64,000 bases of DNA from Cetorhinus maximus (Eukaryota): positions 13,144,001-13,208,000 of the forward strand of contig NC_135909.1 in the NCBI RefSeq assembly GCF_964194155.1. Reading direction: 5' to 3'. Numbering within the stretch: the stretch's first letter is position 1; every line of letters starts with the position of its first letter. Below the pieces are notes generated by a model that did no database searches, had not been told where the DNA came from, and saw only the letters and a program-made list of their open reading frames with translations. Below, in pieces: positions 31,321 through 32,586 of this stretch. Made by a program: the position numbers and the translations under genes.

Positions 31321-31388
31321 AAGCGAATGTGAGAGGATTTCCTCTTTCACTGTGAAAGTGTTTGTGAGATTGTGGGAATGTCTGGAAG

Positions 31389-31865
31389 CACTCTACGGGC
31401 TGTTCCCAGGGACACACACCGAGACAAACATCAACTGCAGCTGGAGGATCATCAACTCGGTGAAAGACGCGCTTTGGTCTGCCCGAAACTTGTTGGTCTT
31501 CCAGCACAAAGAGTTGTCCCCGACCGATTGTTGCGGACTGGCACAATCCAAAGTCCAGGACTACGTGCTGAGGGACGCACTAAAGCTTGGGGCAGCTGCC
31601 GCAAAGGCGCAATGGGGAAGGGTCGCTGTCTAAGACCTTTCTGCCACAGCGCACCGAGAGACTGGGAACTGTTTAGAGCCCCTCGGGCTGTACAGCTCAA
31701 AATGAAAGGCTGTAAATGATTGTAATATTGTTTGTACTGATGCACCTGGTGATACATTTTGTAAAAGTTTAACCTGGATTGTACCCTTGTAATGGTGTTT
31801 TTGAAATGGTTTGGAATGTGATTGAAGATATTTTATGAATAAAGTATATTTTTGCAAAAAAAAAA
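31389..31865 (+). mobile_element. 5'-truncated Tx1/L1-clade non-LTR retrotransposon, copy 1
   Basis: Encodes LYGLFPGTHTETNINCSWRIINSVKDALWSARNLLVF..QWGRVAV* (W-x-x-RN-x-x-x-F motif typical of the L1/Tx1 ORF2 C-terminus); AATAAA 31838-31843; A10 tail; flanked by GTCTGGAAG. Confidence 0.85.
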
Positions 31866-31874
31866 GTCTGGAAG

Positions 31875-32165
31875 CACTGAAGCTTGGGGCAGCCGCCACA
31901 AAGGTGCAATGGGGAAGGGTTCCTGTCTAAGACCTTTCTGCCACAGTGCACCGAGGGACTGGGAACCGTGTAGAGCCCCTCGGGCTGTACAGCTCAAAAT
32001 AAATGTCTGCAAATGATTGTAATATTCATTTATTGTATTGATGCATTTCGTGATACATGTTGTAAAAGTTGAACCTGATTGTACTTTTAAGATGGTGATT
32101 TTGAAATGGTTTGGAATGTTGTTGAAGATATTTTATGAATAAAGTATACTTTTGCAAATAAAAAA
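31875..32165 (+). mobile_element. 5'-truncated Tx1/L1-clade non-LTR retrotransposon, copy 2
   Basis: Homologous to the last ~290 nt of copy 1; AATAAA 32138-32143; A-rich tail; flanked by GTCTGGAAG at 31866-31874 and 32166-32174. Confidence 0.85.
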
Positions 32166-32586
32166 GTCTGGAAGAGGAAAGACCGGCGGTAAAGTTCGCT
32201 CCAAGGCCAAGTTTCACACCTCCCGGGCTGGACTGCAGTTCCCGGTGGGCCGTGTTCACAGGCACCTGAGAAAGGGCAACTATGCTGAGCGTGTAGGTGC
32301 CGGAGCCCCGGTCTATCTGGCTGCTGTGCTCGAGTATCTGACGGCTGAAATCCTGGAGCTGGCCGGTAACGCGGCCCGGGACAACAAGAAGACCCGCATC
32401 ATCCCCAGACACCTGCAGCTGGCCGTCCGCAACGACGAGGAGCTCAACAAGCTGCTGGGAGGGGTGACCATCGCTCAGGGCGGGGTGCTGCCTAATATCC
32501 AGGCCGTGCTGCTGCCCAAGAAAACCAGCGCCGCTGCGGGCTCGAAGACCAAGTGAAGCGGCAATTCTTTAATCTAATAACCCAAA

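Follow-up and report, generated by a model that had tools for sequence, protein, structure and literature searches.

Stacked insertions of a Keno-type Tx1 LINE in a histone H2A gene of the basking shark and recurrent insertion near core histone gene starts

How APE-type LINEs with loosely cutting endonucleases attain nucleotide precision at their targets is an open problem. It is raised here by a histone H2A gene of the basking shark (Cetorhinus maximus), in which two LINE copies are joined to the same nucleotide of the start codon. A sequence-only reading of the locus had proposed a Tx1 family that targets H2A genes by recognizing their conserved 5′ coding sequence. In this study, we analyzed the surrounding 64,000 nucleotides (the window, to which unlabeled positions refer) and the insertion sites of the family throughout the genome.

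The double insert in the H2A gene

The window belongs to a histone cluster region of contig 32 (C32). In it, the AT of the start codon (31378-31379) is followed by a duplication, copy 1 with an A10 tail, the duplication, copy 2 with a decayed tail, the duplication and the H2A body (Table 1). The duplicated sequence GTCTGGAAG occurs three times (31380, 31866 and 32166). Both copies lie in sense orientation, are A-tailed and are joined at AT|G of one H2A gene, as had been described from the sequence alone. Also, the earlier estimate of about one difference in eight bases plus indels agrees with 87.2% identity between the copies over 297 nt (33 mismatches, 2 gaps), and the H2A body (32166-32556) still encodes H2A with few changes upon translation, again as described.

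The truncated copies had been given as 477 and 291 bp long. The latter length is right for copy 2, the former slightly too long for copy 1: family copies read ...CTCTGTG|CTCTACGG and the window reads ...GGAAG CA|CTCTACGG, with 25 of 30 loci extending to that point. Since the window departs from the family sequence at CA|CTCTACGG, copy 1 is 475 bp long. The same 9-bp duplication had been assigned to both insertions. Instead, the target-site duplication of copy 1 comprises 11-13 bp and takes in the first 2-4 bases of copy 2, and that of copy 2 comprises 7-9 bp with edges blurred by microhomology. Because the duplication of copy 1 contains the first bases of copy 2, copy 1 was inserted second and at the same nick. 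Thereby, GCACT, formerly taken for a microhomology at both 5′ junctions, is identified as the duplicated piece of the copy 1 insertion. The entire structure is present three times on the same contig by segmental duplication; therefore, the three structures represent no extra insertion events.

Table 1. Features of the interrupted H2A gene and of neighboring histone genes in the window
Feature	Position	Strand	Basis or remark
TATA-like box of H2A (TATAAGGG)	31313..31320	+	motif only; nick 67 nt past its first base
AT remnant of the H2A start codon, directly followed by the first-strand nick	31378..31379	+	sequence, translation
Copy 1 duplication, 5′ copy	31380..31392	+	11 bp certain; 13 bp counting CT common to the element
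Copy 1: 475-bp 5′-truncated Keno-type Tx1 LINE, young subfamily	31391..31865	+	sequence identity
Copy 1, parts: ORF2 C-terminus to stop, 3′ UTR, AATAAA, A10 tail	stop 31633; AATAAA 31838; A10 tail 31856-31865	+	
Middle GTCTGGAAG: 3′ side of copy 1 duplication and 5′ side of copy 2 duplication (7-9 bp)	31866..31874	+	
Copy 2: 291-bp 5′-truncated, older subfamily	31875..32165	+	subfamily comparison
Copy 2, decayed tail AAATAAAAAA	32156-32165	+	
H2A coding body severed from its AT (3′ duplication 32166-32174)	32166..32556	+	translation
Histone 3′ stem-loop motif of the interrupted H2A	32587..32602	+	by resemblance to Rfam Histone3 matches
Intact H2B, same cluster, insertion-free (H2B paralogs are targets)	29801..30178	+	sequence
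Intact H3, same cluster, insertion-free (H3 paralogs are targets)	33605..34015	-	sequence

The last 305 nt of copy 1 are matched with 100% identity by all 40 scored among 905 genome candidates, and copy 1 is 99.6% identical to a full-length family copy. For copy 2, the best match outside the segmental duplicates reaches 94%. Compared with the majority sequence of the 27 closest relatives of copy 2 (280 columns), copy 2 differs at 11 positions and copy 1 at 26. The interrupted H2A body shows 5-8 differences from the nearest intact H2A, and the 200 nt upstream of it show 11-12 differences from the nearest of 65 intact genes, which is the top of the range among intact H2A genes. Judged by these comparisons, the copies belong to distinct subfamilies of differing age and are two separate insertions from different sources, as had been proposed. 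The counter-proposal made at that time, that copy 2 arose from copy 1 by local duplication plus deletion, is ruled out since each copy has closer relatives elsewhere in the family.

Same-site tandems, in which a duplication separates the copies, were found at 4 of 13 long dispersed loci of the family, in the U2 snRNA array described below and at further sites picked as close pairs. Stacking is a habit of the family, and a double insertion at one nucleotide is not sufficient by itself to demonstrate a target. Some of the tandems at ordinary sites contain captured small-RNA pieces, which suggests that single-event serial insertion does occur in the family. For the pair in the window, a single event, with two RNA templates used in succession at one unsealed nick, or a local duplication of copy 1 is nevertheless very improbable, because copy 2 is decayed and belongs to a different, older subfamily and many dispersed copies have the very sequence of copy 1. 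The divergence of the upstream 200 nt, which fits an older inactivation of the gene, also speaks against a single event.

Elsewhere in the window, the H4 gene (from 35391 downward, - strand) ends after codon 18, followed by about 200 nt resembling H2A-upstream DNA (80% to 30713-30905) and then by a histone stem-loop motif. Decayed reverse-transcriptase-like frames of other repeats flank the histone cluster (1714-2627, 37448-38653 and 62637-63775); by their motifs, we take them to be Penelope-like and CR1-like.

The Keno-type family and its sites in the genome

The full-length element comprises 5.26 kb and carries a U2 snRNA-derived head at its 5′ end. According to Pfam, ORF1 (519 aa) contains ZCCHC3-type RNA-binding domains and a zinc knuckle (zf-CCHC), and ORF2 (1135 aa) contains an APE endonuclease (Exo_endo_phos), RVT_1 and zf-RVT. 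The best PDB match of ORF2 is human L1 ORF2p (E 4e-86), and the proteins closest to those of the element are unnamed or amphibian and 45-48% identical. The earlier assignment to Tx1-type LINEs is borne out. Keno, an APE-type LINE of the Tx1 clade, inserts specifically into U2 snRNA genes (Kojima and Fujiwara 2004, as summarized in excerpts of PMC4494074, PMC4640811 and PMC6136364). As far as these excerpts describe it, Keno and the shark element have in common an APE endonuclease and reverse transcriptase, the same 3′ target 37 nt into U2, a U2-derived 5′ head, and tandem copies with target duplications between them. Unlike Keno, the shark element has about 85% of its exact 3′ ends outside U2 and a recurrent site in four core histone genes, which is absent from the consulted parts of the Keno descriptions. 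That the family is of the Keno type and has a hotspot at histone genes is highly probable.

The exact 24-mer of the family 3′ end occurs 4,957 times in the 4.0-Gb genome. A tail-plus-U2 pattern gave 742 matches, with 0 in the reversed control; U2 was confirmed by Rfam at 5 junction places, and the junction sequence equals the published Keno target as given in the accessible part of PMC6136364. The number of 742 overstates the insertion events because array units were amplified and most sampled junctions (24 of 30) are short U2 pieces between tandem copies. The resulting U2 share of about 15% of exact 3′ ends (742 vs 4,957) relates two different patterns and is inflated by the array amplification. 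On contig 29, which holds 72 of the first 100 listed U2 junctions, units of element plus U2 remainder with periods of 3.5-9 kb form a megabase array (C29 0.17-4.3 Mb and beyond; L163-L170). The U2 array units seen consist of amplified element plus U2 remainder, and an uninterrupted junction, in which the U2 promoter and the first 37 nt of U2 would precede the insert, was present in none of the fetched loci. In dispersed copies (L127-L154), there are tandem junctions or 3′ halves of U2 that stem from the U2 array by 3′ transduction, which marks the array as a source.

One tail variant accounts for 95 of the first 100 listed U2 matches and for 61 of the first 100 genome-wide ends (counted by eye); both copies in the window carry the other variant. 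In the part of PMC4494074 that defines target-specific families, more than 20% of the flanks have to lie in the target. The U2-dominant tail variant alone would sit near this threshold.

Among 87 sampled dispersed 3′ flanks, neither histone nor U2 sequences were found. Dispersed insertions have duplications of about 6 to 21 bp and occur at a weak purine-purine-(T/C/G)|purine step. Four of the 87 (L028, L042, L052 and L059) are no more than about 10 nt away from one and the same abundant repeat and share one orientation, two of them 65-68 nt past a TATAAAA; the repeat has a look that is hammerhead-like and of the Penelope type. At L295 and L299, later copies were inserted precisely at the first base of the U2 head of an earlier full-length copy with duplication of its first 14-15 bases. 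At L297, L301, L093 and L070, copies are joined to small-RNA pieces, including a tRNA (Rfam) and a second U2-headed element; we take one further piece to be U6-like and one to be U1-like.

Insertions near histone gene starts

Counted by distinct 5′ junctions, about 26 insertions lie near histone starts (H2A 8, H2B 12, H3 3 and H4 3), all in sense orientation. Compared with 4,957 family ends, histone starts receive about 0.5% of them. For H2A, a pattern for uninterrupted starts gave 215 matches genome-wide, and a tail-plus-H2A pattern gave 9, of which 8 are H2A genes; the ninth (L061) contains no histone or element sequence and was left out. Seven Keno insertions are present at the 8 loci; 6 of them are at AT|G, the seventh is shifted one base further, and a scan of histone clusters added one H2A insertion at or just before A|TG. 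At the AT|G nucleotide itself, 1.4e-4 matches are expected (4,957 ends, about 223 H2A starts), compared with 4-6 independent Keno events at this exact nucleotide. The recurrence suspected from the double insert is thereby confirmed. Up to two short H2A copies may be deletion products of a full-length H2A copy: two H2A copies are sisters in the tree with 5 differences in 811 nt, though the nearest relatives of the full-length copy are dispersed ones at 3 differences.

H4, suggested earlier as a possible second target, is hit at the same AT|G in 6 of 6 loci representing 3 events. In H3, 3 events at 5 loci lie 5-10 nt before the ATG. In H2B, 12 insertions at 11 loci lie in codons 4-6, all with different 5′ junctions and with one locus rearranged. 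The search patterns for H3 and H2B spanned the AT|G of these genes, and no insertion was found there (0 of 5 and 0 of 11 loci, respectively). Therefore, the start codon itself is ruled out as the target.

One LINE repeatedly knocks out core histone genes, which is tolerated in a cluster of more than 200 copies, and it places full-length copies under histone promoters. Near full-length copies at histone starts number 7, with the 1135-aa ORF2 kept in 5 of them. An H2A promoter lies immediately ahead of one full-length copy in which both ORFs are intact, a situation that the sequence-only reading had anticipated.

The family is not specific for H2A, and it is hardly credible that a dedicated family or subfamily reads the H2A 5′ coding sequence. 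The excess of insertions at one H2A nucleotide is what such a family should leave, and an excess of H2A sequences among tabulated 3′ flanks had been named as its signature. None of the 87 sampled dispersed flanks is histone and about 26 events stand against 4,957 ends, a share far from the 20% of flanks given above. Also, the 742 U2 junctions and the larger number of insertions in H2B than in H2A contradict an H2A-specific family. In a tree of 55 copies, histone-site copies are interleaved with U2 and dispersed copies, so that there is no histone-specific clade.

At AT|G of one H2A gene (L069/L103; C39, near 1516750) lies a GC-rich piece of 425 bp that carries an added A tail and is accompanied by a duplication of about 34 bp. 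Its source is a tandem repeat with 56-bp subunits and a 23-kb period on C679 (unplaced contigs), possibly an rDNA spacer; Rfam gave 0 matches in 7 loci of this source. The piece is likely a passenger RNA moved by the LINE. As an unrelated RNA with an A tail reached the same H2A nucleotide, the RNA sequence is not the guide.

Spacing from the promoter and competing explanations

Relative to the ATG, the nicks are spread from about -10 to +17. Measured from the TATA-like box, all nicks for which the duplication could be measured (18 of 18) fall 63-71 nt downstream across four genes of unlike sequence (H2A 67-68, H3 66-71, H2B 63-71 and H4 69 nt, or 67 by an alternative reading of the box). TATA boxes and start sites were assigned from motifs, the H4 box being ambiguous by 2 nt, and 8 further events with target deletions, a rearrangement or an upstream tandem partner are outside this set. 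Transcription typically starts 30-32 nt from the TATA box. The nicks are consequently placed at about +33 to +40 from the inferred start, close to the U2 site of Keno at +37. Recognition of the conserved H2A coding sequence, as originally proposed, does not fit the insertions in H2B (12) and H3 (3), which were struck at unrelated sequences at an equal distance from the TATA-like box.

Around each start, the genome-wide patterns detect insertions within about 25-30 nt, or at a single nucleotide in the case of H2A. Since they span such short windows, cluster regions were also scanned without patterns. In a first set of 64 regions (200 core genes), of which 2 were picked after their H3 insertions were known, 13 pieces were found: 9 in the start window, 1 antisense in an H2B body and 3 intergenic. 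Another 20 regions with 57 core genes, taken blind, yielded 1 piece, in sense orientation in the body of a degenerate H3, and 0 start-window insertions compared with 2.0-2.6 expected (P 0.08-0.14). The blind set thus did not replicate the peak and is merely compatible with it. In the pooled 84 regions (257 core genes), 9 of 11 gene-associated insertions fall into the start window (7 of 8 without the two pre-known regions) and two gene-body insertions fall outside it. The start-window rate is about 375-fold over that of gene bodies, which itself is about 17-fold over the genome background. No insertion was found in the upstream promoter and none in antisense orientation at the 5′ end in the 84 regions. 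The pattern-free scan covered all but 15 of the 99 listed H2A sites on C32; 6 of these adjoin already known insertions, and 9 are others.

The best reading of these data, which we hold to be somewhat probable, is promoter-anchored targeting refined by a weak local sequence preference. The site would be fixed by promoter-bound or just-started RNA polymerase II machinery and fine-tuned by the weak preference of the endonuclease. According to general LINE biology, a nick on the template strand would prime reverse transcription from the A tail. A first insertion would leave the promoter and the duplicated site intact upstream, so that the same position could be struck again. The two inserts in the window are sequential 5′-truncated insertions of a Keno-type Tx1 LINE having hundreds of U2 junctions, thousands of dispersed copies and histone starts as a secondary hotspot; under the anchoring reading, full-length copies would be transcribed from the histone promoter. 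Against the anchoring speak the blind 20 regions, with no start-window insertion and one piece in an H3 body, the antisense insertion in an H2B body, and dispersed sites, where a TATA at 63-72 nt is found in 3 of 30 cases versus 0-2 in control windows, which is not significant. A rather unlikely alternative is generic accessibility, in which the nucleosome-poor 5′ ends of active histone genes are open and the endonuclease cuts the best purine-purine-pyrimidine|purine step with no fixed promoter spacing. The raised rate in gene bodies, the 3 insertions in intergenic cluster DNA and the weak consensus at dispersed nicks would follow from it; moreover, the H2B sites and one H3 site are A-rich, so that the tail could anneal. 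Against generic accessibility speak the empty upstream promoter, the lack of antisense insertions at the 5′ end and the position of 18 of 18 nicks within a 9-nt window from the TATA-like box.

We regard it as improbable that the histone starts are off-targets read by the endonuclease through their resemblance to U2. H2A and H4 have T|GTCTG in common and are nucleotide-exact targets there, and as this motif resembles T|ATCTG of U2, sequence alone fits these two genes. An H3 body insertion at C|GTCTTG and RTCT at the beginning of 6 among 87 dispersed flanks (P=0.055; 2 of these 6 represent one tandem site) point in the same direction. The motif is absent from H3 and from H2B, the most-struck gene, and RTCTG begins only 1 of 87 dispersed flanks, though it is very common in 4 Gb.

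Promoter anchoring has a broader form, in which Keno is a Pol II promoter-positioned LINE inserting about 35 nt downstream of the start in Pol II genes that are short and non-polyadenylated (all core histones and U2); this is quite possible, but we would not call it probable. Histone and snRNA genes are linked by non-polyadenylated Pol II transcription, Integrator, NELF and Cajal bodies (PMC9133132 and PMC4349240, in the sections consulted), which makes a shared targeting cue plausible. A search for U1 as a target gave 0 matches, with a pattern that had no positive control and is uninformative for that reason. If Keno is positioned in this way, a promoterless element gains a strong host promoter, histone clusters are a second reservoir of source copies, and vertebrates have an element comparable to TRE5-A that acts at Pol II genes. 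Should the anchoring prove wrong, what is left is an ordinary Keno with a curious off-target hotspot. One live family offers five natural targets of unlike sequence at one common promoter distance, by which sequence reading and promoter anchoring can be separated in simple assays.

TRE5-A of Dictyostelium is a non-LTR element whose site is set by the distance from a transcription complex within a narrow window (PMC3159450 and PMC9012585, in part). A narrow window at a set distance from promoter elements is common to both, with a tether demonstrated for TRE5-A and inferred for the shark element. TRE5-A leaves Pol III tRNA genes unharmed, inserting about 50 bp upstream of them, whereas the shark element would insert about 35 nt into Pol II genes, destroying them. 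The crocodilian Tx1-Mar/SINEU system is similar, in the portion of PMC4494074 consulted, by its Keno-related lineage and U1/U2 heads, by targets that are relaxed or shifted, by insertions in tandem around a duplication and by two hot regions without sequence likeness. Same-site tandem stacking is reported there for SINEU, and transcription from flanking promoters was proposed. Unlike this system, whose target is an old Mariner transposon, the shark family has live protein-coding gene 5′ ends as its extra target and is young with long open frames. Utopia has the same U2 site and a restriction-like endonuclease (PMC4640811, in part); the APE-type endonuclease of the shark family rules out identity with it. 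Keno and its U2 site are thus already known, and so is distance-set targeting for TRE5-A at tRNA genes. In the literature searched, which lay outside subscription journals, Repbase and Dfam and did not include the original description of Keno from 2004, no report of a Tx1/Keno element recurring in histone genes was found. Histones are unmentioned in the consulted main text of PMC4494074, PMC4640811 and PMC3747384, and for histone amplicons the excerpt of PMC6136364 reports only LTR fragments.

Further observations concern H2B. One relates to L290:3550-5220 and L286; in L290, the H2B start codon is in frame with ORF1 of a full-length element, resulting in a 556-aa open frame with H2B residues first. 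In the rearranged locus L287 (C32, near 18.69 Mb), an element with its 3′ end in H2B is fused to a promoter and start resembling those of H2A, and an inverted element piece lies on the 5′ side of H2B.
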